Source: a virus
Direction: 5' to 3' (one strand)
Length of the DNA stretch: 64,000 bases
Virus record (IMG/VR): IMGVR_UViG_3300036845_000721
Location: 67,445 to 131,444 of that record
In this document: piece by piece, positions 584-64,000 of the stretch
Numbering within the stretch: position 1 is the stretch's first letter
How the letters are laid out: each line of letters starts with the position of its first letter
Program-made: the position numbers and the translations under genes
Notes under the pieces: generated by a model
The model's input: only the letters and a program-made list of their open reading frames with translations
Databases searched by the model: none
Told to the model about the DNA's origin: nothing

Positions 584-605
584 CGGTTCTGTCTCCTGTT
601 TCTGT

Positions 606-932
606 TCAGCGGCCCGTGCGGCGGCGCTGCCTGCGCAGCGCCCACGAGACGGTAAGGACGATCGCGCCGGGGATCAGCAGCCCGGCCGGGAAGGGCCAGA
701 GCAGCAGCAGTACCAGCCCGAGACCCAGGCTGATCTCGGTGTAGGCCAGCACCAGGCCGGTCACGGCGAGCGGGCTGGTGCGCCGGCCCGCATCCCGGGC
801 GGCGTAGTTGGACAGGTGCCCGAACAGCAGCCCGAACGGGAAGACGAACAGGCCGCCGAGCAGCGCGCACACGGCCAGCGCGTCATTGCGCGCCTCGGCC
901 GGCTCTGGGCGGACGGGGGAGATCTGGTTCAT
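606..932 (-). CDS. DUF4190-like two-TM membrane protein
   Basis: N-x-LAVCALL...FGLLFGH...LAVTGLVLAY pattern. Preceded by the GATCAGGAGACA RBS and an operator. Confidence 0.6.
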   Translation of the reverse strand: MNQISPVRPEPAEARNDALAVCALLGGLFVFPFGLLFGHLSNYAARDAGRRTSPLAVTGLVLAYTEISLGLGLVLLLLWPFPAGLLIPGAIVLTVSWALRRQRRRTGR

Positions 933-984
933 GGTGAGGGTGTCTCCTGATCGTTGAAGGTTGCCGAGTGCAGGATTGCACTCG

Positions 985-2061
985 CTAGCTGGCGGGCCAG
1001 GTTCCGAACACGGCCGGGTCCGGCTCCGGGCCGTCCCCGTCCGGGCTCTCGTCCGGGACGCGGGCTAGCGGCTCGCCCAGCTCGTCCACTTCATGCAGTA
1101 CCCGGCAGGACCGGGCCTTGGCCTTGTCCCCGATCACGACCAGGGTCCGGCGGTCCACCGCGCAGGCCAGGAACCGGGTCGCGCCGCCGTCGTAGCTGCG
1201 GGCGCCGGCCACCGTCGGGCTGAAGTGCAGGCCGCCGCCGCAGTGCTCGCCCGGCTCGTAGTCCTCCGCCGTGACCGTGGCCCCGATCCGGTACTCGGTC
1301 CCGTGGTAGGACAGCAGGCCATCGCGCACCGCCTTGAACATGACCACTTCGCCGTGCGCGGTGGCCAGCCCGTTGTCCCTGATCCACCGGTATCGTTCGG
1401 TGGCCTGGTGCAGCCAGGCGCGGCGCTCGGCCTCGGCGGCGTCCCGGCGGGCTTGCCGGGCTGCCTCCCGCTGACGCCTGATCTCCTCGGGATCGTTCAG
1501 CCGGCGCAGGCCGGCCGGGTTGATGACCTCGCCGTCGCCGTCCACCCTGATCCCGTCGGCGAACATGACCGGCATCTGTTTGGACCCGTAGTCCCGCTGC
1601 CCGGTGCCGTTGCAGTGATAGCACTCGGCCCAGCGCGACAGCGTGATCTTCGGCGGGAAAATCTGCCGGTGCCAGTAGCCGTCGTTATCGTCCCATCCGT
1701 GCTCGTAATACTCGCGGTAGCCGGGCTGAACGACCCGGCCGGCGCCGCTGCATATGCGGCACGTGCGCAGCTTCGGCGGCGTCCGCGGGTCGTTCTTGGT
1801 CCACACCGCCCAGATGCCGCGCTCGCTGTAGACGCGGGCCGGGCCGTAGCCGTTGATCCGCTGCTTGGTCGTGGTCGTTTCCCAGCCGCCCGTGCTCAGC
1901 GTGAACGTGCCGTCCGGGTGGATCGTCACGACGTCGGTGTAGTGGTAGCGGATCGCGTAGCCGTTGCCGCGCGGGTACAGGTAGGTGTTATTGCCCAGCC
2001 GCCGCCGGCCGCTGCGGGAGCGGCGCATCAGCGCCTCGGCCTCGCTGAACGTGATTGTCAT
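985..2061 (-). CDS. Multidomain hypothetical protein with a DnaJ-type Zn-finger pair (CRICSGAG, CYHCNGTG) and a C-terminal C-GGGLHF domain
   Basis: ORF track, CxxCxGxG motifs, conserved RBS motif upstream. Confidence 0.75.
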   Translation of the reverse strand: MTITFSEAEALMRRSRSGRRRLGNNTYLYPRGNGYAIRYHYTDVVTIHPDGTFTLSTGGWETTTTKQRINGYGPARVYSERGIWAVWTKNDPRTPPKLRTCRICSGAGRVVQPGYREYYEHGWDDNDGYWHRQIFPPKITLSRWAECYHCNGTGQRDYGSKQMPVMFADGIRVDGDGEVINPAGLRRLNDPEEIRRQREAARQARRDAAEAERRAWLHQATERYRWIRDNGLATAHGEVVMFKAVRDGLLSYHGTEYRIGATVTAEDYEPGEHCGGGLHFSPTVAGARSYDGGATRFLACAVDRRTLVVIGDKAKARSCRVLHEVDELGEPLARVPDESPDGDGPEPDPAVFGTWPAS

Positions 2062-51129: not shown

Positions 51130-51341
51130 CGGCGGAACAGCTGGGCGACCGGCACAAGTACACCGCGGTCTGCGAAGGCTTCTGCCCGGACTGCCTGGTC
51201 CGGATGATCCCGCTGCGCTACGCCGGCGGCGGCGCGATCGCCGGGCTCTGCAGAGTGTGCCGGACCGGCTGGCGGGCGGTCACGGCCGGGCTGGAGCCGG
51301 GCTGGGACGTGCGCAGCTTCCCGTCGCGGAGCGCCCGGTGA
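51126..51341 (+). CDS. Small Cys-containing protein
   Basis: GTGA coupling. Confidence 0.45.
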   Translation: MTAEQLGDRHKYTAVCEGFCPDCLVRMIPLRYAGGGAIAGLCRVCRTGWRAVTAGLEPGWDVRSFPSRSAR

Positions 51342-51604
51342 GCGCGCGGTACTGGGTGCTGATCTCCGACGAGCTGCTGGCCCGCGGGATCGCGTGGCCG
51401 GACGGGCTGCGGTTCGCTTCCCCGCCGGTCCTGCCGTCCCAGGGAACCGACGTGATTACCGAGCCGCACGAGCTGCCGGGCATGACCTGGCGGCTGATCC
51501 AGGATGACGACGCGCCCGCCGAGCTGGAGGGCTGCCGGGTAGAGCTGGTCTTCCGGTCCGAGAGCGGCAGGCCCGTGCTGGCGGAACGGCGGGCAGCCTC
51601 GTGA
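51338..51604 (+). CDS. Hypothetical protein
   Basis: GTGA coupling. Confidence 0.5.
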   Translation: MSARYWVLISDELLARGIAWPDGLRFASPPVLPSQGTDVITEPHELPGMTWRLIQDDDAPAELEGCRVELVFRSESGRPVLAERRAAS

Positions 51605-52221
51605 CCGCCCGGCAGCCGCCGAAGGTGTCGGTGATCACCCCCACCTGGCAGCGGCACGAGCTGCTGACCGGCCGGTGCATCCCGAGCGTGCAGGCGCAGC
51701 TGCACCAGGCGGTGGAGCACATCGTGGTTTCCGACGGCCCGGACCCGGAGCTCAAGGGGATCCTGGCGCAGCCGCAGCCGCAGTCGCGGCGGCTGTGGTA
51801 TCACGAGCTGCCCGTGCACGACGAGGCGCCGCACTGGGGCGGCCCGGCCCGGACAGCCGGCATCGAGCTGGCCGCCGGGGAGTTCATCACCTACTGCGAC
51901 GACGACGACGCGCTGCGGCCGGAGCACTGCACGCTGCTGGCCGAAGCGCTCGATAACCACCCGGACGCCGGGTTCGCGGTGTCCCGGATGCTGTCCCACC
52001 AGCCGGGCGGCGAGCTGACAATCGGCACCGGGCCGCTGGCCGGCGGCGACGTCGGAACCCCGATGATCATGCACCGCCGGTCCGTGCTGGACACCGCCGG
52101 CTGGGGCGAGCCGGACCGGTTCGAGGACTGGAACCTGGTCTGGGCCTGGATCCGCGCCGGCATCGGCTATGTCCGGGTGCAGGCCGAGACCAGCGACGTC
52201 TGGCCGTCTATCTTCCGCTAG
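51601..52221 (+). CDS. GT2 family glycosyltransferase
   Basis: VSVITPT..R, EHIVVSDG, G..AR..GI..A.GEFITYCDDDD, EDW.L. Confidence 0.9.
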   Translation: MTARQPPKVSVITPTWQRHELLTGRCIPSVQAQLHQAVEHIVVSDGPDPELKGILAQPQPQSRRLWYHELPVHDEAPHWGGPARTAGIELAAGEFITYCDDDDALRPEHCTLLAEALDNHPDAGFAVSRMLSHQPGGELTIGTGPLAGGDVGTPMIMHRRSVLDTAGWGEPDRFEDWNLVWAWIRAGIGYVRVQAETSDVWPSIFR

Positions 52222-52230
52222 GAGACCGTC

Positions 52231-52500
52231 ATGACCATGCCGCCGCGCCCCGGCGAACTGCTGGCCGCTGTCGATGAGGCGAACACGCTGCTCGCGGCCG
52301 GCCCGGCCACGATGGTCACCGGGCGGAACGGGCCGCTGGGGCTGTTCACCATCCGCACCCCGACCACCACGCTGACCATCCAGCTGCCGCGGGCCGACAT
52401 CCTCGCCTGGGCCGGGCTGCTCAGAGAGCTCGGCGACTCGATGGAAGACCGCTCCCCGCTGCTGGTCGCCAGCCCGAACACCGTGCTGCTGCGGCCGTGA
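52231..52500 (+). CDS. Hypothetical protein
   Basis: AGGAG RBS. Confidence 0.6.
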   Translation: MTMPPRPGELLAAVDEANTLLAAGPATMVTGRNGPLGLFTIRTPTTTLTIQLPRADILAWAGLLRELGDSMEDRSPLLVASPNTVLLRP

Positions 52501-52649
52501 AGTACAAGGTGACACTGTACTGGGACGGGCCGGTGTTCCGCGGCGAGGGGGCCGTCGCGGTGGAGGCCGACAGCGAGGGCGACGCGGTGCGCGAGGCGCT
52601 GGCCTATGCCGGGCTGCCGAAGATCGGGGAGGTGACTCCGCAGCCGTGA
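52497..52649 (+). CDS. Small protein ending GEVTPQP
   Basis: Translated by hand, GTGA coupling. Confidence 0.55.
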   Translation: MKYKVTLYWDGPVFRGEGAVAVEADSEGDAVREALAYAGLPKIGEVTPQP

Positions 52650-52804
52650 GAGACGACCGCCAGGATGCCGCGTGCCTGCGTGGCGCAGCCCGGGTCCTGC
52701 GCGCCCGCGCACGGCGCGTCACGTTCGCGCTCCGGGTCATTATCCGTGTCCTGGAGCGGTCCGCGGACCGGATCGACGGCGGGGAGGTGACCCCGCAGCC
52801 GTGA
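52646..52804 (+). CDS. Small protein ending GEVTPQP
   Basis: Translated by hand, GTGA coupling. Confidence 0.5.
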   Translation: MRDDRQDAACLRGAARVLRARARRVTFALRVIIRVLERSADRIDGGEVTPQP

Positions 52805-53121
52805 ACGTGACGTGGTCGGTGAAGCCGGCTGCTGATTTCGGCACCGAGCCCGGTGAGCTGACCTTGCGGCCACTGAGCGGGTACCGGCCCGGCGACGGCC
52901 AGGTGGAAGTGCTGCGCGCCGACCGGGTCGTCTACATCGCCGACGAGATAATGAGCCTGATCCAGGACGGGGAGCTCCCGTGGGCGCAGCTGGTGCAGGA
53001 GAACCTGTGGGTCATCGGGTCGGTGCTGAAGATCCGCGGCCGGAACCGCCTGGTCATCTACGTGATCACCGGGCACTGCGGCCCGCGGGTCAGTGCTTAC
53101 CTTGCCGAGCAGCCGGACTAG
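52801..53121 (+). CDS. Hypothetical protein
   Basis: GTG start coupled to the previous stop. Confidence 0.55.
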   Translation: MNVTWSVKPAADFGTEPGELTLRPLSGYRPGDGQVEVLRADRVVYIADEIMSLIQDGELPWAQLVQENLWVIGSVLKIRGRNRLVIYVITGHCGPRVSAYLAEQPD

Positions 53122-53174
53122 GAAGGGTCAGCGGAAACGCTGGTGATCAGCACTGATGAAGATTTTCGCCGGGC

Positions 53175-54191
53175 ATGACGGCGGATCCGGGTGCGCTTTT
53201 TTACCGGATGCGCTTGCCGCTGGAGGAGCTGAACCGCCGGGACGGGTTCGAGGTCACGTTCGCCGACGCCGGCGATGGCGACGGGTCCCGCCCGCCTGCC
53301 GTTACCCTGCGCGACCTGGAAGGCTACGACGTGATCACGGCGCAGCGGTGGAACAAGCACACCGGGCTGGAGGTGTGGCGGCGCGCCGGCGGCCCGCTGG
53401 CCAGGCGGGTCTACGAGCTGGACGACGACCTGTGGAATATCACGCCGGAGAACTGGCAGGCCTACCAGCTGTATAACCGCCCGGACATCCGCGACGCGGT
53501 GGAGCACGCCGCCGAGACCGCCGACCTGGTGACCGTGTCGACGGAGCCGCTGGCGGAGGTGCTGCGCGAGTTCAACCCGAACGTGGCGGTGCTGCCGAAC
53601 TGCATCCCGGAATGGGTCACGAAGCTGCCCCGGAAGCAGCGCCGGCGCCCCCGGGTGGGCTGGCAGGGCGGCGCCAGCCACGGTATCGACATCGGCCAGG
53701 TGGCCGCCCCGGTGCGCCGGTTCCTGAAACGGTTCCCGGACTGGGACCTGCAGCTCAACGGGTCGGACTACCGGCCCACGGTCAAGGCCCCGGCAGGCCG
53801 GATGTTCTACGCGCCCTGGGTGCCGGTCTGGGAGAACCCGGAGAAGTACTACACCTCGGTCGACTTCGACATCGGGCTGTGCCCGCTGTACCCGACGAAG
53901 TTCTCCCGCGCCAAGTCCGCGATCAAGGCCCTGGAGTACGGCGCCCGCGGCATCCCGGTGATCGCGTCGGATATCGAGCCGTACGCCAGTGTCATCACGC
54001 ACGGCACGGACGGGTTCCTGGTGCGCCGGGACCATGAGTGGCTGAAGTACCTGTCCGAGCTCGCCGCCGACGAGCAGCTGCGGGAGAAGATGGGCGCCGC
54101 CGCCCGCGAGATGGCCCGGCGGCACCTGATCGGCGACGGCGCGGACGCCTGGGCCGCCGCCTACACCGGGCTGTTCACCCGGCCGCGGTAA
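53175..54191 (+). CDS. GT-B fold (GT4-like) glycosyltransferase
   Basis: FYRMRLP, YELDDDLW, ADLVTVSTEPL, VGWQG..SH..D, DIGLCPL...F...KS.IK.LEY.A.G.PVIAS. Confidence 0.85.
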   Translation: MTADPGALFYRMRLPLEELNRRDGFEVTFADAGDGDGSRPPAVTLRDLEGYDVITAQRWNKHTGLEVWRRAGGPLARRVYELDDDLWNITPENWQAYQLYNRPDIRDAVEHAAETADLVTVSTEPLAEVLREFNPNVAVLPNCIPEWVTKLPRKQRRRPRVGWQGGASHGIDIGQVAAPVRRFLKRFPDWDLQLNGSDYRPTVKAPAGRMFYAPWVPVWENPEKYYTSVDFDIGLCPLYPTKFSRAKSAIKALEYGARGIPVIASDIEPYASVITHGTDGFLVRRDHEWLKYLSELAADEQLREKMGAAAREMARRHLIGDGADAWAAAYTGLFTRPR

Positions 54192-54220
54192 ACTGAACCC
54201 GCAGGTGAGGAGGGTTTTTC

Positions 54221-54859
54221 ATGGGCGAGAACAGCGGCGGGTGGATGCAGGGCCTGTTCCGGACCGGGCCGGGCGGTGAGCTGCCGGCCGTCGCGGTGAC
54301 CCGGCTGCCCCCGGAGCTGGAACAGCAGCAGCGCCGGGCTGCCCCGCCGAAGCCGGAGCCGGCGCTGCCGTCCGAGCCCGGGTTCGGCGGCGCGCCCGGC
54401 GACCCGGATTTCGTTGCCGGGTCGGTGACCGGGTACCGGTGGTGGGCGACGACCGGGGACGGGGTGCTGCTCGGCATGCACGCTTCCTGGACGGACGGCG
54501 AGAACACCGCCCGCTGCCTGGCTGTCCAGCAGGGCGCGTCTCCCCAGGCGGGCAGGCATTCCGATGCCGAGGTGCCGGCCAGGGGCTGCGGCTGCGGGTT
54601 CTACGCCTGGTGGACGGTGCAGCCGCGGTACGCGACCGGGTCGCTGCTGCCGGTCCTCGGCGTGATCGAGGGCTACGGCCGGACCCGGACCGGGAGCAAG
54701 GGGTTCCGCTGCGCGAAGGCGCGGATCCTGGCGCTGTGCCCGTCCTGGGACGAGCCGGAGGCTGCCATGGCCGTCATCATGGCCTACCCCGCCGCCAGGG
54801 TGTACCGGCAGCCGGGCGCGATGCTGGCCGAGTTCCCGCCCGACCCGAACTACCCGTAG
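54221..54859 (+). CDS. Hypothetical phage protein (GYRWW...A.C...H..VP...CGCGFYA...GVIEG.G...G.KGFR)
   Basis: Cys/His pattern and coding-like composition. Confidence 0.7.
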   Translation: MGENSGGWMQGLFRTGPGGELPAVAVTRLPPELEQQQRRAAPPKPEPALPSEPGFGGAPGDPDFVAGSVTGYRWWATTGDGVLLGMHASWTDGENTARCLAVQQGASPQAGRHSDAEVPARGCGCGFYAWWTVQPRYATGSLLPVLGVIEGYGRTRTGSKGFRCAKARILALCPSWDEPEAAMAVIMAYPAARVYRQPGAMLAEFPPDPNYP

Positions 54860-55265
54860 ACGGCCGGAAAGGCCCCGGTTCCCGCGAGCGGTTGTACGGG
54901 AGCGGGGCCTTCCTGGATTGATCCGCCAGCTAAGCGGTTTCGGTTGTAGCGTCATGATACACGGCGGGTTACCGGATGGCTACACCTAGACACGGCCCGG
55001 CAGCGGAACGTATCCTGCCGATGGCCCTCGGTAATCCTGCCCGGGGCTAGACGGCCTCTTTGCATGGCGTACTCACCGGCCCGTGGGGCGTCATCGCGGT
55101 GATGCTTTCTGTTTTGCCAGCAGTACAGCACGACTCTTTCCTGCGCGGCGGCCCGGGGACGCACGGCCCCCCGGCCGCCGCGTGGCATTCCGGCCAGAGG
55201 GGAGCGGTCATGATCATCCACTGCTAGGCATTCCCAGACAGTAATCAGATGGTTACTATCGGTTC

Positions 55266-56045
55266 ATGAACGAGTCGACACAGTGGCTGAGTGACGCGGC
55301 GGTCGCGCCTGCCCTGCCCGCCTTGCTGTCCGGCCTGGTCCGTCAGCTGCGGGTGTACCTCAACTCCGGCTGGCCGGCTTTCGACCGGCTGGCCGCGATC
55401 CGCGAGGAGCTGGACGGCCTCGCGCCGCCGCCGCCGCCGGACCCGGATACCGGCGGCCCGGTCTACGGCCGGGACCTGATCGGGCAGCTGCTGGCGACGA
55501 GCACCAGCCCGGCCACCATGCTGTTCTCCGCGATCGCGGGCGCGCCGGTCAGCTTCGCGGTGTGGACGGACGGCTGCGTGCAGCTGACCGGCGAGCAGTG
55601 CAAAAGCCTGGACGCCGAGCCGGGCACCTGGGCGGAGCACCGCCGCGGCACCTTCAAGCTGGACGGCCGGGTGCTCGCCGACGTGACCTCGGACGTGATC
55701 ACGAGCCGGATGCCGTCCGCCGCGGTCGCCCGCCTGGAAGCGGGCACCCCGCTGGGCGCCGTGCTGGCCGCCATCGGCCGCCGTGAGCCGCTGTCGGTGC
55801 TGCCGTGGGGCGGCGGCCTGGTGTCGTCCGCGCGGATGTGGACTACGGGCCACGGGGGCAGGCGGCCGGAGCGGGTCGCGCTCGCCGAGGAGACCGTCCA
55901 CCCCTGGTTCTGCCAGCGGGTGCCGGACCCGGACGTGCTACTGCAGCGGACGGGCGGCGCCGAGGAAACGCAGGTAGCGGAACAGGTCCATGATCGCCTC
56001 GTTGCGGGACAGCCCGAACCCGCCGCGGCCGGCGTGCAGGTCTGA
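55266..56045 (+). CDS. Possible chorismate lyase/UTRA-fold protein
   Basis: S.T.L...G......R...L....L..A.S.....R.......L.AG.PLG..L pattern; weak. Confidence 0.35.
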   Translation: MNESTQWLSDAAVAPALPALLSGLVRQLRVYLNSGWPAFDRLAAIREELDGLAPPPPPDPDTGGPVYGRDLIGQLLATSTSPATMLFSAIAGAPVSFAVWTDGCVQLTGEQCKSLDAEPGTWAEHRRGTFKLDGRVLADVTSDVITSRMPSAAVARLEAGTPLGAVLAAIGRREPLSVLPWGGGLVSSARMWTTGHGGRRPERVALAEETVHPWFCQRVPDPDVLLQRTGGAEETQVAEQVHDRLVAGQPEPAAAGVQV

Positions 56046-56210
56046 TCCCTTCGTGGCGGCCACGTACAGCTTCGGTCCCCCGCCGCTGCGGGCCAGCCGG
56101 GCGGTCTCGATGTGCAGCCCGCCGATCACGACCGGCTCGAATACCCGGTCTGTCTGCAGCGGCAGCAGCGGGGTAACCACGGGCCGGGTGACGTCGTTGT
56201 CACCGTCCAT
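55938..56210 (-). CDS. Hypothetical protein
   Basis: Operator B palindrome at 56215 directly upstream; overlaps the 3' end of 55266..56045. Confidence 0.4.
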   Translation of the reverse strand: MDGDNDVTRPVVTPLLPLQTDRVFEPVVIGGLHIETARLARSGGGPKLYVAATKGSDLHAGRGGFGLSRNEAIMDLFRYLRFLGAARPLQ

Positions 56211-56540
56211 GATTTTCCGATCGATCGGAAGTCCTGCATCCGGGGACCCGGCCCGGGGTCACTCGGCAGTAACCCTGCTGGTGCTGGGGCCGCCGTCCCG
56301 TGTCCGGGACGTGCGGGCCGCCGGCCGGCTTCGCCCTGGGGCGCCCCGGCGGGTCCTCCGTCGTGCTGTCCCCCAATGCAACAGCCCGGGCGCCAGGTGC
56401 CGGGCGCACGACCCGGCGGCTGCTTCCCCTGCCCGGTGCCCTGGCAGGTGCTGTCATCGTAACGGGCCGCAGGCGGGACGTCACGCAGGGCCGCGGCGTG
56501 TCCCGGCCTGTTCCGCGCCCGGCCGGGGTAGGGTGGCCCG

Positions 56541-56855
56541 GTGCCCGTTAGCTGGAACGGCCGCCGCCCGGTCAAGGCCCCGCAGTGGAGTCTCCGGGGC
56601 CTGGGCGCGCTGTTCGCTCCCGCGGGCGCGGCCACGGCGCTGTGCTCCCCGGCGGTCCTGCGGCGGGACGCCGCCTGGTGGGAGGAGGCGGCGCGGACGG
56701 CCTGCAACCCGCGGCTGGCCGCCCTGGCGGCCGGGACGGCGGCGGAGTACCGCGCCGCGGCGGACCGGTACGAGGAATGGCTGCGCTGGCTGGGATCCGC
56801 GGCTGGACACCCGGCGCCCGCCACTGTTAGTCTCAGACCGATTACTGAGAGCTAG
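56541..56855 (+). CDS. Ala-rich helical hypothetical protein
   Basis: ORF. Confidence 0.4.
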   Translation: MPVSWNGRRPVKAPQWSLRGLGALFAPAGAATALCSPAVLRRDAAWWEEAARTACNPRLAALAAGTAAEYRAAADRYEEWLRWLGSAAGHPAPATVSLRPITES

Positions 56856-56867
56856 CTAGGAGCCTCG

Positions 56868-57512
56868 ATGACCGACACCCCGCTGCTCGAAACCCCGGTG
56901 AGCAGGCGCAGCCTCCTGCGCGGCGCGGTCGCGGGAGCGGGGGGCCTGACCCTCGCCAGCCTCGGCCTTGCGGTCACGGGCAAGACCGCCCGCGCGTCCA
57001 GCCTCTACTCGATCCAGGCCGACTGGGCCTGGTGCTCGCTCTGCTCCCAGGCGTATTACGCCACCGGGGCGTTCCGCGGCTCCGGGGACTGCCCGAAGCA
57101 GCCCGGCGACGGGCACGCCGCCCCCGGCTGGCACTACTCGATGGTCTACGGTCAGGGCACGACCGGCGGCCTGCCCGGCACCCCCGGTTACCAGAACGGC
57201 TGGCGCTGGTGCCAGTACTGCTACTCGCCCTACTGGCCCGGCACCAACGCGGGCGGCCAGTGCGTCGCCAGCCGCGGCAACGGCTCGCATTCTCCCGGCG
57301 CGTCGTTCAGCTACGCGATGCCGGTCGGGCTGCCCGGCGGCTACCAGGGCGGCTGGTCGCCCTGCGCCGCCTGCTCCACCCTGTACCACTCCGGCTCCGG
57401 CTCCGGCACCGACTGGGGCTACTGCTACGTCAACGCCAACCGCTTCGGCGGCAAGGTGAGCCACAGTCACAACGGCAGCTGGCCGTACGTGCTGATCGTC
57501 AACTCAACCTGA
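56868..57512 (+). CDS. Tat-secreted Cys/Trp-repeat protein
   Basis: SRRSLL twin-arginine signal; three Q.(D/G)W..C..C repeats; AGGAG RBS. Confidence 0.75.
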   Translation: MTDTPLLETPVSRRSLLRGAVAGAGGLTLASLGLAVTGKTARASSLYSIQADWAWCSLCSQAYYATGAFRGSGDCPKQPGDGHAAPGWHYSMVYGQGTTGGLPGTPGYQNGWRWCQYCYSPYWPGTNAGGQCVASRGNGSHSPGASFSYAMPVGLPGGYQGGWSPCAACSTLYHSGSGSGTDWGYCYVNANRFGGKVSHSHNGSWPYVLIVNST

Positions 57513-57734
57513 CCCGTGCAGGATCACGCCGTGCTCCCAGGCGGCCCGCCTGATCCGGCGGCGCATCACCGCGATCACCGCGTCCGCCTCCCAGGAGTCC
57601 AGCTGGTCCAGCTGCACCAGGTGCCCGCGAACCGACGGGTGGCCGATCAGGTGCCAGGCCTGCCGGACGTGCGCCGGGCTGTCCAGCGGCATCGCGTCCA
57701 GCCAGCCCGGCACGGTGACGCCGGCCCGGCCCAT
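57504..57734 (-). CDS. Small hypothetical protein
   Basis: ORF, start uncertain. Confidence 0.45.
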   Translation of the reverse strand: MGRAGVTVPGWLDAMPLDSPAHVRQAWHLIGHPSVRGHLVQLDQLDSWEADAVIAVMRRRIRRAAWEHGVILHGSG

Positions 57735-57738
57735 GATG

Positions 57739-57951
57739 TCACCGGCCCGCGGCCCGGCCGGCGATCCGCCGCATCGGGTGGTGCCGGCCGTACAGCCGGG
57801 TGACTTCCAGGTGGTCCGCGATGTCCGGTACCCCGGCCGCGATCCCGCAGGCCTTACCGATCGCCGCGGGCAGGCTGGCGGCCTGCACGCCGAACGTCAT
57901 GATGCCGCCGTTCGGGTAGGTGACGCGCGCCTGCCACTGCCGGGTCTTCAT
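57739..57951 (-). CDS. Small hypothetical protein (MKTRQWQARV...)
   Basis: GGAGG RBS. Confidence 0.55.
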   Translation of the reverse strand: MKTRQWQARVTYPNGGIMTFGVQAASLPAAIGKACGIAAGVPDIADHLEVTRLYGRHHPMRRIAGRAAGR

Positions 57952-58033
57952 GACCGTTCCCTCCGGGTACAGCAAGACCCCGGACGGTGTCGGCCATCCG
58001 GGGTCCTGCCGTGTCTCCTGCGTTGCCCTTCTC

Positions 58034-59674
58034 CTAGATGCTACCCCGCGCGTGGTCGGCGAGCAGGGCCGGCACGTCGGCATCGAAGCCCGAGACGTCC
58101 AGGCTTCCCGCGTCGTCCGGGTCCGCCAGCGCGAACCGCGTCGGGGTGGTCATGATGGTCTGCATCCGGGCATTGATGCCCATCCGCTGGCGGTAGTTCT
58201 CCAGCGCCTGGAAGACGTGGATACCGCGGTTGGCCTCGTAGTCGCTCCAGATCTGGAACGTGTCGACCTCGATCTTGTTGGTCGCGGCCCAGACCATCGG
58301 CAGCGAGCAGTCGGTGGCGCCGAACGGCAGCGCCGCCATGTAGCCCATCGCCTGGTCCAGCCGCATCTGCGGGGACAGCTGCAGCGGCATGAACCAGTCG
58401 CTGAAGCCGTAGCAGCCCCAGGCCGGCTCGGTGTTCATGACCACCAGCGACATCGCCGCGACGGCCTCCCGCGCGGTCAGGCCGTAGCCCGCCGCCGAGT
58501 AGGTCATCGACCCGGAGATGTCCAGCGCGATCATGGTCCGCTTGCCGGCCGGCTCGGTGGTCCGGAACGCGGCGTAGAAGCCGTCCGACAGCGCGCCGGT
58601 CACCTGCGGCACCGGGGTCCACGTCGTGGTGCCCTTCTCCGACCGGCCCGTGGCGTACACCTTGGCAGCGATCAGCATCCGCACCGGGTGCACCCGGCCC
58701 TTGCGCAGCAGGCTCGCGTCGGTCAGCCGCTCCGTCACGGCCCGCAGGTGCGAGCTCATCGGCGCGAGCACGCCGAGCCGGGTCAGCTTCGGCAGGTTCC
58801 GGATCAGCGCCGTGATCGGCATGCCGGCGTCGACCAGCGCCCGCATGACGTCCGCCTGCGAGGTGGCCTCGTCCGGCAGCGCCTCCCACGGCAGGCCCGG
58901 GTACTCCCCGAGCAGCGACACGTAGGCCTGCGCCTTGACGGCGGCGGTGCCGGAGCCGCGCTCGATCTCCCGGGCGCGCTCGTAGCCGGCCACCCACTTC
59001 GGCAGCGCGGTGTCGTTGCCCGGGTACCGGTCGCCGCCGGTCACCCAGCCGAACAGCCGGTCGTGGGCGGCCATCAGCGTGCCGTCGGCCGCCCGCGGCT
59101 TCGGGTGCGCCATCCGCAGCAGGTCAGCGTGCGCCCAGCCGTCCCGCTGCCGGTACTTGACCAGCTGGTAGGCCAGCTCGTCCGCGTCCTTGGTCAGGTA
59201 CCAGGACGCGACCGCCTGCCGGGCCAGCGTGCCCCAGCCGCCGAACTGCTCGGCGTACTTGGCGAACGTCTCCAGGTGCGAGCCGGTCCGCACGATCGCC
59301 GGGAGCGCCCGCGCGGCGGCCCGGCGCCCGTCGACATCACCGAGGTGCAGCGCGGCGGCCAGCGCGAGCAGCGCCGGACCCTGCTTCGGCGCCCGGCCCG
59401 CCACCGAGATCTCCTCCGCGAGCTCCACCAGCCGGGTCGCGTTCTCGCGCGCCGCAGCCAGGACAAGGCCGGCGTTGTCGGCCGTGGTGTCCTCGGCGGA
59501 CACGTAGTACGTGCCGAAGGTGCCCATGGTGAGGAACCGGCGCAGCCGCGTCTCGCTGCCGGCCAGGTGGGAGTAGCCGCCCGTGTTATTGAGCTCCTGC
59601 CGCGGGTCGGCCTGGCGGGTGACGGCCGTGGCCGCTCCGCGAACCCGGATCTGCTCCAGCGTGTCCTTCGTCAT
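58034..59674 (-). CDS. rsr: Ro60/TROVE-domain RNA-binding protein (Rsr) with C-terminal vWA domain
   Basis: N..GGY....RL.RFL..G, KY.QR.GW.H.DLLR.AHP, LPWEALP, ALIRNL.KL, vWA MIDAS DISGSM, G.TDCSLP; start re-called at MTKDTL with AGGAGG. Confidence 0.95.
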   Translation of the reverse strand: MTKDTLEQIRVRGAATAVTRQADPRQELNNTGGYSHLAGSETRLRRFLTMGTFGTYYVSAEDTTADNAGLVLAAARENATRLVELAEEISVAGRAPKQGPALLALAAALHLGDVDGRRAAARALPAIVRTGSHLETFAKYAEQFGGWGTLARQAVASWYLTKDADELAYQLVKYRQRDGWAHADLLRMAHPKPRAADGTLMAAHDRLFGWVTGGDRYPGNDTALPKWVAGYERAREIERGSGTAAVKAQAYVSLLGEYPGLPWEALPDEATSQADVMRALVDAGMPITALIRNLPKLTRLGVLAPMSSHLRAVTERLTDASLLRKGRVHPVRMLIAAKVYATGRSEKGTTTWTPVPQVTGALSDGFYAAFRTTEPAGKRTMIALDISGSMTYSAAGYGLTAREAVAAMSLVVMNTEPAWGCYGFSDWFMPLQLSPQMRLDQAMGYMAALPFGATDCSLPMVWAATNKIEVDTFQIWSDYEANRGIHVFQALENYRQRMGINARMQTIMTTPTRFALADPDDAGSLDVSGFDADVPALLADHARGSI

Positions 59675-59715
59675 GATGCACCTCCTAGCAGGTGAAACGG
59701 TGAAGGCAGAGCCCC

Positions 59716-59797
59716 GCGGGCGAAAAGCGGGAACCGGCGCGCTTTCGCGCAGATCCGTTGAATGGCCGGGTTGATAACCGACTCCCATCCGGCCCGC
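59716..59797 (-). ncRNA. Y RNA-like ncRNA 1 (short insert)
   Basis: 5' GCGGGC-C(bulge)-GGA...GGGAGUCGG-UUAUC pairs with 3' CCGGUUCCC...UUC-GCCCGC; immediately upstream of Ro60. Confidence 0.75.
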
Positions 59798-59818
59798 AGG
59801 GTCCTGTCTTCAGTTGAG

Positions 59819-59957
59819 CTGGCAGGCGAAGTGCGAAAACCGGTGTTGTACGCGCTCTATCCGGGCTGAGCTACCGGTCCCTTTCAGGACCAGGCGGGAT
59901 TTGAACCCGCGACCTCGCGCTCCCAAGGCGATAACCGACTCTCATCCGGCCTGCCAG
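59819..59957 (-). ncRNA. Y RNA-like ncRNA 2 (YrlA-type, circularly permuted tRNA domain)
   Basis: Same bulged-C stem; insert order is T arm (GCGGG UUCAAAU CCCGC), closed acceptor hairpin, D arm (AGCUCAGCCCGGAUAGAGC). Confidence 0.9.
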
Positions 59958-59964
59958 GGCTAGC

Positions 59965-60048
59965 CCGGCGGGCGAAAGCTGGTGACCGGAGCGCTATCGC
60001 GCCTGATTAGAAGTCAGGTGATAACCGATCACACGTCCGGCCCGCCGG
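59965..60048 (-). ncRNA. Y RNA-like ncRNA 3 (anticodon-like hairpin insert)
   Basis: Same stem; insert CCUGA-CUUCUAA-UCAGG plus GCG-GAUA-GCG tetraloop hairpin. Confidence 0.75.
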
Positions 60049-60058
60049 AAGAATGAGT

Positions 60059-60190
60059 GCTGGCGGGCGAAGAATGGGAACCGGAGTCTCCCCGGTGTTA
60101 AACGAGGAGTCCCTGCCATCAGGGAAGGCCCCGTGGTGGGGCCTGGAGGAATCGAACCTTCGGTAACCGACTCCCGGCCGGCCCGCCAGC
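60059..60190 (-). ncRNA. Y RNA-like ncRNA 4 (four-arm permuted tRNA-like insert)
   Basis: Same stem; T arm GAAGG-UUCGAUU-CCUCC, hairpin AGGCCCC/GGGGCCU, 6-bp hairpin UCCCUG-AUGG-CAGGGA, 7-bp hairpin. Confidence 0.8.
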
Positions 60191-60220
60191 ATCACGATCA
60201 TAGCGTGAGCATCACGTAGA

Positions 60221-60336
60221 GCTGGCAAGCGAAGTGCGGGAACCGGGAACCTCCTCGCGGAGGGTGAGGGTATCGAACCCTCATCTAGGACTTCCGCCCT
60301 ATTTACCGATAACCAACTCCCATCCGGCTCGCCAGC
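60221..60336 (-). ncRNA. Y RNA-like ncRNA 5 (T-arm-containing insert)
   Basis: Same stem; UAGGGC-GGAA-GUCCUA, UGAGGG-UUCGAUA-CCCUCA, CCUCC-GCGA-GGAGG. Confidence 0.8.
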
Positions 60337-60340
60337 CCGG

Positions 60341-60413
60341 TGGCCCCGGCGCGACTCGAACGCGCGCACGCCGCTTAGGAGGCGGCAGCTCTAGTCCGCT
60401 GAGCTACGGGGTC
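60341..60413 (-). tRNA. tRNA-Arg(CCT)
   Basis: Cloverleaf, anticodon arm GCCGC-CT CCT AA-GCGGC; one acceptor mismatch. Confidence 0.9.
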
Positions 60414-60417
60414 AAAG

Positions 60418-60491
60418 ACGCCGAGACGGGACTTGAACCCGTGTAACGCGCTTTGCAGGCGCGGGCCTGCGCCAGTCTCGGCCACTCGGCG
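60418..60491 (-). tRNA. tRNA-Cys(GCA)
   Basis: Cloverleaf, CT GCA AA loop, U73. Confidence 0.9.
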
Positions 60492-60492
60492 A

Positions 60493-60568
60493 TGGTGTCC
60501 CCGGCGCGACTCGAACGCGCGACGCACGGCTCCGGAGGCCGCAGCTCTGTCCACTGAGCTACGGGGAC
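60493..60568 (-). tRNA. tRNA-Arg(CCG)
   Basis: Cloverleaf, CT CCG GA loop, encoded CCA. Confidence 0.92.
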
Positions 60569-60574
60569 TTGGTC

Positions 60575-61216
60575 TCATGCAGCCAGCCGGCGCCGCGGGG
60601 TGCGGTTCCCGGTCTGGCGGAAGCCCGGCTCGTCGGTGGCCAGGTGCAGCAGCTGCGCGAGGTGCGCGTCGGGATCGGGCAGGCCGCCCGGCGGGTGACA
60701 GCACCAGGTCGCGGTCCGCGGGCCGCCGGGGCGCTCCAGCTCGTCTATGTTGCCGGCCTGGCCGTCGCGGCGGATCCGCCACCAGCCGCCCGCCGACCCT
60801 TGCAGCTCGAAGTACCCGCGCTCGGTGTACGACCGCGCCTCGTCCTCGGTCAGGACCGACAGCAGCAGCTCCCTGGCCCGCACAGACGCACGAGCACGGC
60901 GGTGACGATCGGCTTCCGCCTCGCGTGCCCAGGTGTCCAGCGTGGCCTGGTCCGGTGGCACTAGCCCCGGCGGCGAGCAGTTGTAGCCGGGCAGCCACGG
61001 CTCGCCGTCTGCGGTCGTGCCGTTGCGCGCCCAGACGGCACCGAAGCCGGCCATGGACGCGCCCGTGCAGGTGATGACCTCCGTCAGGTTACCGATCGAG
61101 CGGGTCAGCTCCACGGTGCTGCTGGTGATGCCGATCAGCGTCCACTGCGTGGCGGCCGAGCCCGTCGTGGTGCTCCCGACGTACAGCTGGGCCGGCCCGG
61201 ACAGCAGGACCGGCAC
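60575..61216 (-). CDS. Hypothetical phage protein (LLLSVLT...GYFELQG...WCCHP...LAQLLHL.TDE..F)
   Basis: ORF within the tRNA cluster, adjacent to 61219..61488. Confidence 0.65.
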   Translation of the reverse strand: MPVLLSGPAQLYVGSTTTGSAATQWTLIGITSSTVELTRSIGNLTEVITCTGASMAGFGAVWARNGTTADGEPWLPGYNCSPPGLVPPDQATLDTWAREAEADRHRRARASVRARELLLSVLTEDEARSYTERGYFELQGSAGGWWRIRRDGQAGNIDELERPGGPRTATWCCHPPGGLPDPDAHLAQLLHLATDEPGFRQTGNRTPRRRLAA

Positions 61217-61218
61217 GG

Positions 61219-61488
61219 TTAGCCGCCGCGGTTGGGGCGGTGCGCGACGATCTGCAGCGCGCCCGCGGCCGGGTCGAACTCACGGATCTCGGTGCGCTTG
61301 CGGCCCCGGTCCTCGATCTTGTAGGTGCCGTAGCCGGCCCGCCGCAGGTCGGCGAAGGCCTGCCGGGCGTTAGCCACGTCGTCGGGGTCCCCGGGATTCC
61401 AGGTGATCCGGAAGTCGCCGTCGTCGGAGGTCAGCTTGGAGATGCAGCCGAAGCCGGCCGGGACATCGGTCAGTACCTGCTCTGCCAT
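61219..61488 (-). CDS. Small protein ending in di-glycine (…RPNRGG)
   Basis: GD.RITW.P..PD.V..AR..F..L...GY...FDP.A pattern. Confidence 0.7.
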   Translation of the reverse strand: MAEQVLTDVPAGFGCISKLTSDDGDFRITWNPGDPDDVANARQAFADLRRAGYGTYKIEDRGRKRTEIREFDPAAGALQIVAHRPNRGG

Positions 61489-61508
61489 GGGAACATCATG
61501 CCACTGGG

Positions 61509-61588
61509 TGGCGGAGCCTGGTGTCGGGCCAGGTCTGCCGAGGCCACGGTTTTACAGACCGCTGGGCGTGCCGCCGCCCACCTCCGCC
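61509..61588 (-). tRNA. Atypical tRNA-Tyr(GTA)
   Basis: Perfect acceptor stem, CT GTA AA loop, long variable arm; T loop CCCGACA and D loop non-canonical. Confidence 0.65.
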
Positions 61589-61592
61589 GTTG

Positions 61593-61665
61593 AGGGTCGT
61601 ACGGGAATTGAACCCGTTAACACCTGGGTCACAGCCAGGTCCCGCTGCCGTTTGGGTTACGACCC
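61593..61665 (-). tRNA. tRNA-His(GTG)
   Basis: Cloverleaf, CCTGG-CT GTG AC-CCAGG. Confidence 0.85.
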
Positions 61666-61667
61666 GG

Positions 61668-61742
61668 TGGTCAGTGAGGGATTTGAACCCCCGCAAGCCC
61701 GCGGTGTGGGCGCGGTGCTCTCCCTGGCTGAGCTAACTGACC
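61668..61742 (-). tRNA. tRNA-Val(CAC), C33 variant
   Basis: Cloverleaf, CCGCG-CC CAC AC-CGCGG. Confidence 0.75.
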
Positions 61743-61750
61743 TTGCCAAG

Positions 61751-61823
61751 TGCGCCCGGGGAGACTCGAACTCCCGACCTGCCGATCCGTAGTCGGCTGC
61801 TCTGTCCGCTGGGCTACGGGCAC
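61751..61823 (-). tRNA. tRNA-Arg(ACG)
   Basis: Cloverleaf, CT ACG GA loop. Confidence 0.92.
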
Positions 61824-61834
61824 TTGTTCCTGCG

Positions 61835-61908
61835 TGGTCGCTGACGGACTCGAACCGCCGGCCTCCTGCGTGTCATGCAGGCGCTCTGCTCATCTGAGCT
61901 AAGCGACC
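61835..61908 (-). tRNA. tRNA-Val(GAC)
   Basis: Cloverleaf, CCTGC-AT GAC AC-GCAGG. Confidence 0.9.
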
Positions 61909-61911
61909 ATC

Positions 61912-61996
61912 GACCGCGAGTCCAGGCCTGGACGGCAGACTCGAACTGCCTTCGCGCCACGGGTGGCGCCAGGGCTCCTGCCCCGACCTCGCGGTC
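61912..61996 (-). ncRNA. Orphan tRNA-like structured RNA without an anticodon loop
   Basis: 8-bp closing stem GACCGCGA/TCGCGGTC enclosing four hairpins including a canonical T arm GGCAG-TTCGAGT-CTGCC. Confidence 0.6.
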
Positions 61997-61999
61997 TTG

Positions 62000-62074
62000 C
62001 GGTGACGACGAGATTTGAACTCGCGACGCCCGGATCGACAATCCAGTGCTCTGACCATGCTGAGCTACGTCACC
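62000..62074 (-). tRNA. tRNA-Asp(GTC)
   Basis: Cloverleaf, TT GTC GA loop, G73. Confidence 0.92.
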
Positions 62075-62086
62075 ATGTAACTTGCG

Positions 62087-62160
62087 CTCCCGCGACGGGA
62101 ATCGAACCTGTAACCATCGCCTTAACAGGGCGCCGCTCTGCCTGATTGAGCTACGCGGGA
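62087..62160 (-). tRNA. tRNA-Asn(GTT)
   Basis: Cloverleaf, CT GTT AA loop, G73. Confidence 0.9.
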
Positions 62161-62195
62161 TCGTTTGCCCGTCACCGGGCGGGTAGGGCAGGGTC

Positions 62196-62351
62196 ATGAT
62201 TATCCTCGGCCTGATCTTGCTGATCCTGGGCTTTGTCGCCAAGATTGCCATCCTGTGGACGATCGGCATCATCGTCCTGGTTGTCGGCCTGGTCCTGCTG
62301 CTTGTCGGCTCCGTCGGCCACCCGGTAGCCGGGCGGCGCTGGTACTGGTAG
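62196..62351 (+). CDS. DUF6131-like small membrane protein (51 aa)
   Basis: MIILGLILLILGFVAKIAILWTIGIIVLVVG...GRRWYW, translated by hand. Confidence 0.7.
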   Translation: MIILGLILLILGFVAKIAILWTIGIIVLVVGLVLLLVGSVGHPVAGRRWYW

Positions 62352-62422
62352 CGGGGGCAGGATTTGAACCTGCGGCCTCCAGGTTATGAGCCTGGCGCGC
62401 TGCCGAACTGCGCTACCCCGCG
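62346..62422 (-). tRNA. tRNA-Met(CAT), initiator-like
   Basis: C1 unpaired with U72, CT CAT AA loop, encoded CCA; anticodon stem has only two of the three initiator G-C pairs. Confidence 0.88.
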
Positions 62423-62445
62423 ATGCTGCCTATCATAACCGCTTG

Positions 62446-62520
62446 CGGTCCCGGCGGGCTTTGAACCCGCGTCGCTCGCTTGAAAGGCGAGTGTCCTGAT
62501 CCTGGCTAGACGAAGGGACC
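62446..62520 (-). tRNA. tRNA-Glu(TTC)
   Basis: Cloverleaf, CT TTC AA loop. Confidence 0.92.
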
Positions 62521-62654
62521 GGGAGGGGCGGCAGGCAAGGGTACCCGGATTTCGGATCTGCCTGCCGCCCCGGTGCCAGGTCCGCTGCATGGACCAGGAG
62601 GGATTTCGCCCTCTGCTTATCCCTATCCATCTTTCGCAGATCTGGTGCGGCCTG

Positions 62655-63308
62655 TCAGTACCGTGCGTACCAGCTGAACTCCTGCCTTATCAGGGCCGCG
62701 TACGGTTCCACGGTGGCGATAACTCCGTTGCTGGGCACGCCCGTCAGGATGATGACGCCGACCGCGCCGGCGTTGGTCGCGTCCTCGGTATCGCGGACGT
62801 TGACGTAATGGAAGTCGCCGTCCATGACCCACAGCTGGTTGAGCGCGGTCGTGATGCAGCCGTAGCCGCCCACGTTGCCGCTTTCCGTTGACGTATTGAA
62901 GCCGCCGTACGCGCAGTAGTTGCTGAGCACGTTGTAGGGCGACGCGACCAGCATGACGACCCAGGAGCCGAGGTACAGGCTGTCCCACGACCGCGAGTTA
63001 CCCGGGCCTTTCAGGGTGGAGGGCCACGGCCAGCTGTTGGTCACGTAGCCGATCCGGACCGCGGACCAGTCGTTATTCGGCTCGCCTATCGGTTCGCGCT
63101 GCCACATCTGCATGTTGGCGTTGTTCGCGCGTGTCCCGTCGGTGTCATTGAGGCAGTAGCCGACGTAGCTCGGCACGATGCACAGGTTGGACTGGTGGAC
63201 GACGGTCCCGGGCGGGGCTGCCGGGGCCGCTGTCTGCGCCTGGGCGGGGAGAGCGAATCCGGCCGCGATTGCCGCTGCCGCCAGGGGCAGGCTCAATACA
63301 CGGAGCAT
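62655..63308 (-). CDS. Secreted protein, possibly ricin-B/beta-trefoil lectin-like
   Basis: Signal peptide ending AQA; YCL.D......QMW...N..W and GC.....NQLW motifs; AGGAGAC RBS gives start 63308. Confidence 0.55.
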   Translation of the reverse strand: MLRVLSLPLAAAAIAAGFALPAQAQTAAPAAPPGTVVHQSNLCIVPSYVGYCLNDTDGTRANNANMQMWQREPIGEPNNDWSAVRIGYVTNSWPWPSTLKGPGNSRSWDSLYLGSWVVMLVASPYNVLSNYCAYGGFNTSTESGNVGGYGCITTALNQLWVMDGDFHYVNVRDTEDATNAGAVGVIILTGVPSNGVIATVEPYAALIRQEFSWYARY

Positions 63309-63397
63309 TCTCACTGCTGGTCTCCTAGCTAGTGCCGGTGAGTCTTCGTGCACTCACCGTACATCGCCGGATACTCAGCGTACATAGACGGATTGCG

Positions 63398-63472
63398 TGG
63401 TCCTGACGGGCTTTGAACCCGTGTCGCCGGCTTGAGAGGCCGGTGTCCTGAGCCTGACTAGACGACAGGACC
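63398..63472 (-). tRNA. tRNA-Glu(CTC)
   Basis: Cloverleaf, CT CTC AA loop. Confidence 0.92.
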
Positions 63473-63504
63473 ATCGTGAATACGTCACCTGACGTATGTT
63501 TCGG

Positions 63505-63578
63505 TGCGCCAGGCAGGGCTCGAACCCGCGACCCGCGGCTTAGAAGGCCGCCGCTCTGTCCAGCTGAGCTACTGGCGC
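63505..63578 (-). tRNA. tRNA-Arg(TCT)
   Basis: Cloverleaf, CT TCT AA loop. Confidence 0.92.
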
Positions 63579-63658
63579 CGGATTTATGTTGACTTACCGT
63601 AATTGCCCGTTTACATTCTGTCATATGGGCTGCGTTCTGTAACCGGAAGGATCACGCT

Positions 63659-63808
63659 ATGTCACCGAAGACCTGGCTCGCCGCCGTAGTCATCTCGGCC
63701 GCCACCCTCCTGAGCGGTTCCGCAGCCGTCGCCGTCGCATCGGCCGCTCCCGCCACGGTCGCTGCCGCCCCGGCCCACCACATCGCGCCGAACGACACCT
63801 GGACCTGA
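63659..63808 (+). CDS. 49-aa secreted peptide (signal sequence plus short tail ending HHIAPNDTWT)
   Basis: Translated by hand; GAAGGA RBS; upstream AT-richer promoter-like stretch. Confidence 0.55.
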   Translation: MSPKTWLAAVVISAATLLSGSAAVAVASAAPATVAAAPAHHIAPNDTWT

Positions 63809-63815
63809 ACCTGCG

Positions 63816-63888
63816 TGGGCCGCCAGGGACTCGAACCCTGAACACGAAGATTAAAAGTCAGCTGCTCTGCCTATTGAGCTAGCGGCCC
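63816..63888 (-). tRNA. tRNA-Lys(TTT) with a mismatched anticodon stem
   Basis: Cloverleaf; GCTGA-CT TTT AA-TCTTC gives two central mismatches. Confidence 0.8.
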
Positions 63889-63939
63889 GGGATGCGTATC
63901 TCCCGGACCCGTTTCGCGGTCGTGATCATGACTGCCTCC

Positions 63940-64000
63940 TGGTCGGCCGGCCGGGGGTTGAACCCGGAACCTGCGGTTTATAAGGCCGCTGCTCTCACCT
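63940..64000 (-). tRNA. tRNA-Ile(TAT), 5' end beyond the window
   Basis: CT TAT AA loop, T arm CCGGG-TTCAACC-CCCGG, encoded CCA. Confidence 0.75.

Follow-up and report, generated by a model that had tools for sequence, protein, structure and literature searches.

What use does a phage have for five different Y-RNA-like RNAs in front of a single Ro60 gene? The question is raised by a locus in the window, that is, the whole stretch of 64,000 nucleotides analysed here, which comprises bases 67445–131444 of the 131,444-bp IMG/VR virus record IMGVR_UViG_3300036845_000721 (CheckV completeness 62%). The source is an uncultured soil actinophage, and the phage origin proposed by an earlier, sequence-only reading is supported by the virus record in which the window lies and by the large tRNA array that it carries. 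On the minus strand, the order is tRNA array, five Y-RNA-like units (U5, U4, U3, U2 and U1) and the gene for Ro60 (Rsr). Phage Ro60 proteins have been known since 2003 and phage YrlA-like RNAs since 2014, and the described norm is two Y RNAs per locus. Since 2014, the tRNA mimicry of bacterial and phage Y RNAs has stood as an unsolved question, and the studies concerned have covered one or two RNAs per locus.

The answer favoured here, with a probability of about 0.75, is that tRNA genes, Y RNA genes and Ro60 gene make up one expression unit. Five Ro60 particles with different tRNA-like faces would arise from it and would act as adaptors to, or competitors for, proteins that bind parts of tRNA. 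This proposal leans on analogy with characterised Ro60 systems and starts from the genes themselves, a handle whose pairs covary, modules that recur as orthologs and turn over between phages, and strict linkage to Ro60.

The units share a handle and differ in their modules

The five minus-strand units lie directly upstream of Ro60 at the positions that had been proposed for them, as reading of the sequence bears out (Table 1). U5 starts three bases past tRNA-Arg(CCU) at the end of a series of 15 tRNA genes (minus strand, 60339–64000; ARAGORN and Rfam), and U1 ends 41 nt ahead of the Ro60 ATG, which has an AGGAGG ribosome-binding site 8 nt in front of it. Predicted unit lengths are 82 nt for U1, 139 nt for U2, 84 nt for U3, 132 nt for U4 and 116 nt for U5, as compared with a norm of ~80–130 nt for Y RNAs. 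All units pair their ends when folded, with z scores of −1.35 for U1 and −2.6 to −4.6 for the others.

Common to the five is a bipartite stem of ~22 bp with a bulged C, referred to here as the handle, in which the 5′ and 3′ ends of every unit are paired. It consists of an outer helix of ~9 bp, the bulged C (the third base of GCCGGA) and an upper helix of 9–10 bp capped by GGUUAYC. In Deinococcus and animal Y RNAs, Ro60 holds on to a handle of this type. The motif of its 5′ strand (GCCGGA, 7–8 nt, CGGUUAYC) occurs four times in the window, where 0.01 occurrences are expected, and all four lie inside the array; U3 is missed because of a one-base insertion. A covariance model of the 22-bp handle (R1), built from the five stems of the window, matches exactly five places in the whole record, none of them outside the array (E 9e-15 to 7e-26); U3 is matched on its own strand with the filters off but not with the default ones.

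Handles were aligned for 23 units from six related loci, with the pairing partners slid by 1–3 columns as a control. Standard pairing is seen in 89.9% of handle cells as opposed to 34–46% in the slid controls, 13 of the 22 pairs are altered in both strands, and the observed covariation measures were not reached in any of 500 shuffles. The outer-stem covariation that had been noticed among the copies in the window is genuine and extends to all 23 units and six loci. The outer helix, the bulged C with its nearly invariant GCCGGA and the upper helix with its GGUUAYC cap are well supported; GCCGGA is constant in the 23 aligned soil-phage units except for its last two bases in win_U4 (GGC) and L016_X3 (GGG). 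The stem as first described thus stands in its bulged C, paired ends and upper helix, with the correction that U4 has GGC rather than GGA after the bulge. Its GGA/UUC helix, which had been taken as a constant part, does not hold up: the three-pair form is confined to the window phage and L016, whereas the 3′ strand of the other relatives reads CAYGCC and retains only the first of the three post-bulge pairs.

The 3′ motif beside the bulge is uniform among the paralogs of each genome but different between genomes. It is UUCGC in all five units of the window and all three of L016, CAYGCC in L003, L021, L023, L033 and L004, and CACACG in a mycobacterial prophage (L006). The module types are older than this split, because they are common to genomes on both sides of it. 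On the simplest reading of these sequences, the handles of one genome either follow a single shared partner or are kept alike by homogenisation, which would fit a single Ro60 binding all of them.

Beyond the handle, the units differ, and the proposal of Y-RNA-like units with a constant handle and variable modules is supported. Orthologs of four of the five module types are present in related phages, where compensatory changes preserve the predicted hairpins. Orthologs of U2 are found in L003, L021 and L004 (compensatory changes in 16 of 41 pairs), those of U5 in L021 and L016 (9 of 34), those of U4 in L003, L021, L016 and L023 (7 of 39) and those of U3 in L021, L016, L023 and L033 (5 of 28); small units that resemble U1 occur in L003, L021 and L023. 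Neither U3 nor U1 has a T arm or D arm. The last hairpin of U4-type units has a 7-nt, tRNA-Val-like loop in L003, L016 and L021 and an 8-nt variant in the window. Taken together, these patterns suggest that the modules are under selection.

U3 is the most conserved module type. Across the five phages that have it, the 30-nt module varies only by a compensatory U-A to A-U change in the stem and at loop positions 34–35, which read UC, CC, CC, CU and CC, while C32, U33, U36, A37 and A38 are fixed. The loop in the window, CUUCUAA with anticodon UCU, is identical to the loop of the phage’s own tRNA-Arg(UCU), and the CC version is identical to that of its tRNA-Arg(CCU). Moreover, the 17-nt arm equals the anticodon arm of genuine tRNA-Arg(UCU) genes of distant bacteria in six of eight sampled cases, among the matches listed. 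An exact-pattern scan of genome contigs for the whole U3 module gave no match.

At Rfam gathering thresholds, only tRNAs are found in the window. Below them, the YrlA model (RF02553) matches U2 with 34.3 bits (E 2e-5; gathering score 69) and leaves the other units unmatched, while related and cultured-phage units score 32–52 bits with it. The arm order of YrlA, that is, T arm, acceptor-like hairpin and D arm, is present in U2 only. U1 gives a weak, sub-threshold match to the Deinococcus_Y_RNA model (22.2 bits, E 0.35). We also take the 5′ strand of the handle to resemble that of vertebrate Y RNAs.

Table 1. Features of the locus and sizes of related arrays; positions refer to the record named in the second column
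Feature	Record	Positions	Strand	Description
tRNA-Arg(CCG), tRNA-Cys(GCA), tRNA-Arg(CCU)	window	60339..60568	-	ARAGORN and Rfam tRNA; final three of the tRNA array, directly 5′ of the Y array
U5	window	60221..60336	-	handle plus GGAA-loop hairpin, T arm and GNRA-loop hairpin, no D arm; R1 104.7 bits; fold z −4.08
Promoter-like motif ending TATGA	window	60198..60210	-	upstream of U4 by ~10 nt; only one exact copy in the window
U4	window	60059..60190	-	handle plus T-arm-like element and three hairpins, no D arm; R1 124.3 bits; fold z −4.57
U3	window	59965..60048	-	handle plus 5-bp/7-nt anticodon-arm copy and 4-bp hairpin; R1 70.8–75.2 bits; fold z −4.56
U2	window	59819..59957	-	YrlA-type: handle plus V hairpin, T arm, acceptor-like hairpin and D arm; R1 118.4 bits
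U1	window	59716..59797	-	minimal: handle plus short module with GCGC/GAAA hairpin; nearest Ro60; R1 89.9 bits
Ro60 (Rsr) gene	window	58034..59674	-	546 aa; ATG 59674, stop 58034–58036; Pfam and PDB matches
19-bp GC-rich hairpin	window	57969..58012	-	22 nt past the Ro60 stop; −40.9 kcal/mol, z −5.26
Array	L003			4 units
Array	L023			4 units
Array	L004/L005/L026			3 units
Array	L033			3 units
Array	L216			3 units
Array	L191			3 units
Array	L021 (190-kb contig)			6 units
Array	L162			6 units
Array	L206 (122-kb viral contig)	343–1683	-	9 tandem units directly upstream of a Ro60 ortholog; T arms in at least 5 units

Ro60 is the constant neighbour of arrays of varying size

The Ro60 gene itself had been recognised correctly. 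Its product matches, over its full length, the TROVE (HEAT-repeat) domain (PF05731, 4.6e-34) followed by vWA_Ro60 (PF25045, 1.4e-47), and its PDB matches are the Deinococcus radiodurans Rsr 2NVO (6.7e-102, residues 19–546 aligned), Xenopus Ro60 1YVP (2.4e-96, likewise end to end) and 9NEN. Reading of the sequence also locates an intact MIDAS motif of the DxSxS type, D-I-S-G-S, near 58520.

Relatives of the locus were found in viral and metagenome contigs by means of the Ro60 protein and handle DNA patterns. Their Ro60 identity is 39–64% where the full gene is present. In all related loci, the array immediately precedes a Ro60 ortholog encoded on its own strand, and adjacency to Ro60 is seen in 12 related loci. 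The trio Arg(CCG), Cys(GCA), Arg(CCU) that precedes the array in the window does so in L003, L016, L021/L022 and L033 too, whereas L023, L162 and L216 have no tRNA genes near the array, so what stays constant beside the arrays is Ro60 rather than the tRNAs.

Unit content and order vary as well. For example, L003 is without the U3 and U5 types, and the order in L016 is U4-U5-U3. A broader handle model (R2), built from the 23 units and applied to cultured actinophages and a prophage, finds mostly two units in the cultured phages (Bxz1, Sparky, Cashline and Phabba), up to three in FuzzBuster, and five in the Mycobacterium abscessus prophage prophiGD43A-5 (MW584167.1, L006). The record of that prophage annotates just one tRNA-Thr at the array, and its paper is silent on Ro or Y RNAs. 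In the Gordonia phage Forza, the best unit is downstream of Ro60, amid tRNAs. The window’s array had been thought exceptional for its size, a view that does not survive the comparison: since relatives have 3, 4, 6 and up to 9 units, besides the five of prophiGD43A-5, five is mid-range rather than a record. The nine units of L206 form the largest array of this handle type among the loci examined.

The tandem order is not an artefact of assembly, since all four unit junctions are bridged by contigs of independent soil metagenomes, several of them with zero differences; X2 spans 59752–59955 and 59984–60368, and X3 spans 59854–60078. A contig from the window’s own soil sample (run X1, record 6) represents a co-occurring relative with a shorter, different array. 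It joins 60215 to 60340, by which exactly U5 is skipped and tRNA-Arg(CCU) is joined straight to the promoter-like spacer, with short flanks of 30–44 nt at the joints, and 85 different letters replace 59956–60144, i.e., U3 and most of U4.

A coding role for the open reading frames (ORFs) that overlap the array was considered and rejected: they have no protein-family match, the GC content of the array is lower than that of the flanking coding DNA (0.64–0.66 vs 0.70–0.78), and indels between orthologs are not multiples of three.

Several YrlA-type units are labelled as tRNAs by ARAGORN or in GenBank, namely, L006 1753–1831 as tRNA-Thr(tgt), L003 1023–1097 as tRNA-Pro(ggg) and L004 2579–2653 as tRNA-Arg(tct), along with tRNA-Leu calls in the Gordonia phages Boopy, BlueNGold and Mareelih. 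In Rhodococcus phage Trina, a 209-nt “tRNA-OTHER” pseudogene is located just upstream of the Ro gene. L016 has a further structured RNA of 207 nt (998–1204; z −3.05), which follows the promoter-like motif and precedes the first of the Y units. It has no Rfam match, a T-arm-like element and a handle-like end stem with a bulged C and with CCUGG in place of CCGGA.

Expression and possible roles of the array

The motif that ends in TATGA is conserved at or near the start of the array in six genomes (the window, L003, L016, L021, L023 and L033). It stands ~10 nt before the first unit in L003, L016, L023 and L033, before U4 in the window, and before the second unit, W2, in L021. Transcription that started ~7 nt past the motif would begin at the first base of U4. 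From this position and conservation, the motif looks like a phage promoter; U5, which lies upstream of it, would be made with the tRNAs. A generic scan of 57800–61600 for sigma-70 promoters and terminators yielded nothing useful and did not call the motif, and it placed no terminator between U1 and Ro60. The GC-rich hairpin that follows the Ro60 stop is a possible terminator or 3′ stabiliser; the terminator scan passes over it because a U tract is absent. Within 20 nt of this hairpin is the ribosome-binding site of the following gene. Farther along, two genes downstream of Ro60, a small protein (57507–57734, minus strand) has a match to DUF6582 (1.3e-6), and the other nine ORFs downstream of Ro60 (51283–57951) match neither Pfam nor PHROG.

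How the RNAs might be transcribed and processed, and what they might bind, can be pictured as follows. The tRNA array, the five Y RNA genes and Ro60 would be expressed as a single unit from one strand, and each RNA (82–139 nt) would pair its ends into the common handle and bind the one Ro60 ring of the phage. The modules so displayed would be a tRNA elbow (U2), partial tRNA mimics with T arms (U4 and U5), a bare anticodon arm (U3) and a minimal module (U1). By analogy with known systems, they may tether Ro60 to proteins that recognise parts of tRNA, e.g., a host exoribonuclease like polynucleotide phosphorylase (PNPase), or compete for such proteins. As an outcome, the surveillance or decay of RNA, probably of tRNAs, would be steered during infection.

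Several observations weigh against this picture. All units stay below the Rfam gathering scores, U2 with YrlA coming nearest; metazoan Y_RNA (RF00019) finds no match at E up to 10 over 59500–60700; and U1 folds no better than shuffled sequence. Post-bulge pairs two and three fail in 8 and 15 of the 23 units, respectively, and since these pairs are not conserved, the handle departs from the Xenopus site seen in the crystal structure. Among the sequencing runs that a search listed as containing the sequence, none is an RNA run. Finally, PNPase-independent repair genes are missing from the record, which at 131 kb and 62% completeness contains no member of the RtcB, RNA ligase or CCA-adding enzyme (PolyA_pol) families, and the neighbours of Ro60 have no assigned function; genome context is consequently uninformative as to pathway.

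Other explanations divide according to whether the units act as free RNAs. Among those in which they do, the units might be decoys for counter-defence, a more specific form of the role against host RNA-targeting defences that the earlier reading had suggested. Stabilised by Ro60, they would soak up or sense tRNA-attacking or tRNA-modifying enzymes of the host, such as anticodon nucleases, and so shield the tRNAs of the phage. Arrays of this kind would change quickly because host defences differ, and units indeed turn over between close relatives and a variant lacking U5 co-occurs with the window, but turnover alone does not demonstrate an arms race. A bare anticodon arm with the sequence of genuine tRNA-Arg(UCU) arms, in which only loop positions 34–35 vary in five phages, makes U3 an attractive candidate for a decoy or sensor of host enzymes that target tRNAs. 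The adjacency of arrays to large tRNA arrays also fits, although arrays occur at loci without tRNA genes (L023, L162 and L216) as well. Since no defence or nuclease partner has been identified, and the known functions of Ro60 and Y RNAs, i.e., a PNPase tether and a gate on the Ro60 cavity, require no decoy role, decoys are possible but a good deal less probable than adaptors. Were the units instead to act in cis, as a structured leader of the Ro60 mRNA for Ro60 autoregulation or as processing signals of the tRNA operon, no free RNAs would accumulate. The terminator-free 41-nt gap, the single strand on which all elements lie and the invariable position of arrays upstream of Ro60 in this clade are in line with such a role. 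It is nevertheless improbable, because five to nine different conserved modules far exceed the needs of an operator, folding predicts no stable structure from U1 to the ribosome-binding site, the best unit of Forza follows Ro60, and those homologs that have been characterised build up as free RNAs in complex with Ro60 (PMC4201824, PMC12135203).

Least probable by far, and already disfavoured, is that the units are decayed or rearranged tRNA genes, or recombination repeats of the tRNA cluster, unconnected to Ro60. T arms, a D arm and an anticodon arm do lie within the units, and tRNA finders and annotators label some units of L003, L004, prophiGD43A-5 and Gordonia phages as tRNAs. Decay, however, does not account for a common non-tRNA handle that covaries, for a linkage to Ro60 that persists where tRNAs are absent, or for orthologous modules that are nearly invariant while Ro60 has diverged to 50–64% identity.

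Adaptors or competitors on one Ro60 thus remain the preferred explanation, and it can be carried further. More speculatively, the array could be a library of quickly evolving cassettes, each of which mimics one part of tRNA (the elbow, a T-arm half or the anticodon arm) while tethered to Ro60, so that a single Ro60 ring would intercept, sense or redirect several host tRNA enzymes; this we regard as rather doubtful. Jointly with it, and just as tentatively, U3 could serve as a decoy or bait for readers of C32-U33-N-N-U36-A37-A38 in ANN-decoding tRNAs, for which anticodon nucleases or the t6A37 machinery are candidates. If the array were such a library, it would form with the tRNA array a two-part system of spare tRNAs and decoys.

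Whatever their role, these arrays divide the tRNA mimic into independently conserved parts on a common Ro60 handle. They occur naturally in sizes from 2 to 9 units, and Mycobacterium smegmatis can serve as the host for some of the phages that carry them; the question of tRNA mimicry is therefore testable module by module. There is a practical side as well, in that several units are mislabelled as tRNAs by finders and annotators and current Rfam models miss the units.

Comparison with known Ro60 and Y RNA systems

A bulged helix attaches Y RNAs to the outer surface of Ro60, and the remaining module links the protein to partners, e.g., PNPase (PMC4201824). No paper was found that describes arrays of five to nine units or a Y RNA with an anticodon arm only, in a search that did not cover the supplementary tables of Chen et al. 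2014. Several systems are nonetheless similar in part.

The YrlA/YrlB loci of Salmonella, Mycobacterium smegmatis and mycobacteriophages (RF02553, PMC4201824) lie beside Ro60/Rsr and have an end stem of the Ro60-binding type. One of their RNAs, YrlA, mimics tRNA with a T arm, an acceptor-like hairpin and a D arm, which U2 has in exactly that order, and a second, simpler Y RNA is usually added. Unlike those loci, which have one or two units, the window has five, none of which passes the Rfam threshold, and it includes module types that were not found described, namely, one limited to an anticodon arm and one that has a T arm but no D arm. The handle, which keeps both strands and the bulged C, is nearer to that of Deinococcus and animal Y RNAs than to the GNCGAA-type handle of YrlA.

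In D. radiodurans, Yrn2, tRNA-Asp and Yrn1 come from one precursor, and one Y RNA tethers Rsr to PNPase (PMC4201824). Co-transcription with a tRNA, as proposed here, and a bulged-C helix with both strands kept recall the present locus, as does the weak match of U1 to the Rfam model. In contrast, the Deinococcus locus is bacterial and stress-responsive, has two Y RNAs plus three unassigned small RNAs, and no anticodon-arm module is known from it.

Among phages, the Ro60 of Thermus phage phiLo binds two Y-like RNAs, Yrl1 and Yrl2, encoded directly upstream of it, and forms ternary complexes with host PNPase (PDB 9KOP, 9L5Y; PMC12135203). Binding is thus demonstrated for phiLo, which differs in having two RNAs with a CGAA-motif handle, no described array or series of tRNA parts, and an unrelated host lineage. 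A Listeria phage makes three abundant RNAs upstream of an Rsr-like gene (PMC12282133).

Vertebrates have two to four Y RNAs per species for one Ro60 (PMC4201824). Several RNAs share one Ro60-binding bulged helix, much as the units of the window share their handle, and their loop modules are thought to recruit different proteins. These modules are not tRNA-like, however, the genes are separate rather than in an operon, and Rfam Y_RNA does not match the units described here.

Closest in organisation are prophiGD43A-5 and the six- and nine-unit IMG/VR arrays, in which tandem units that share a handle lie directly upstream of a Ro60 ortholog. The prophage differs from the window in the bulged A of its handle and in the T arms of four of its five units.

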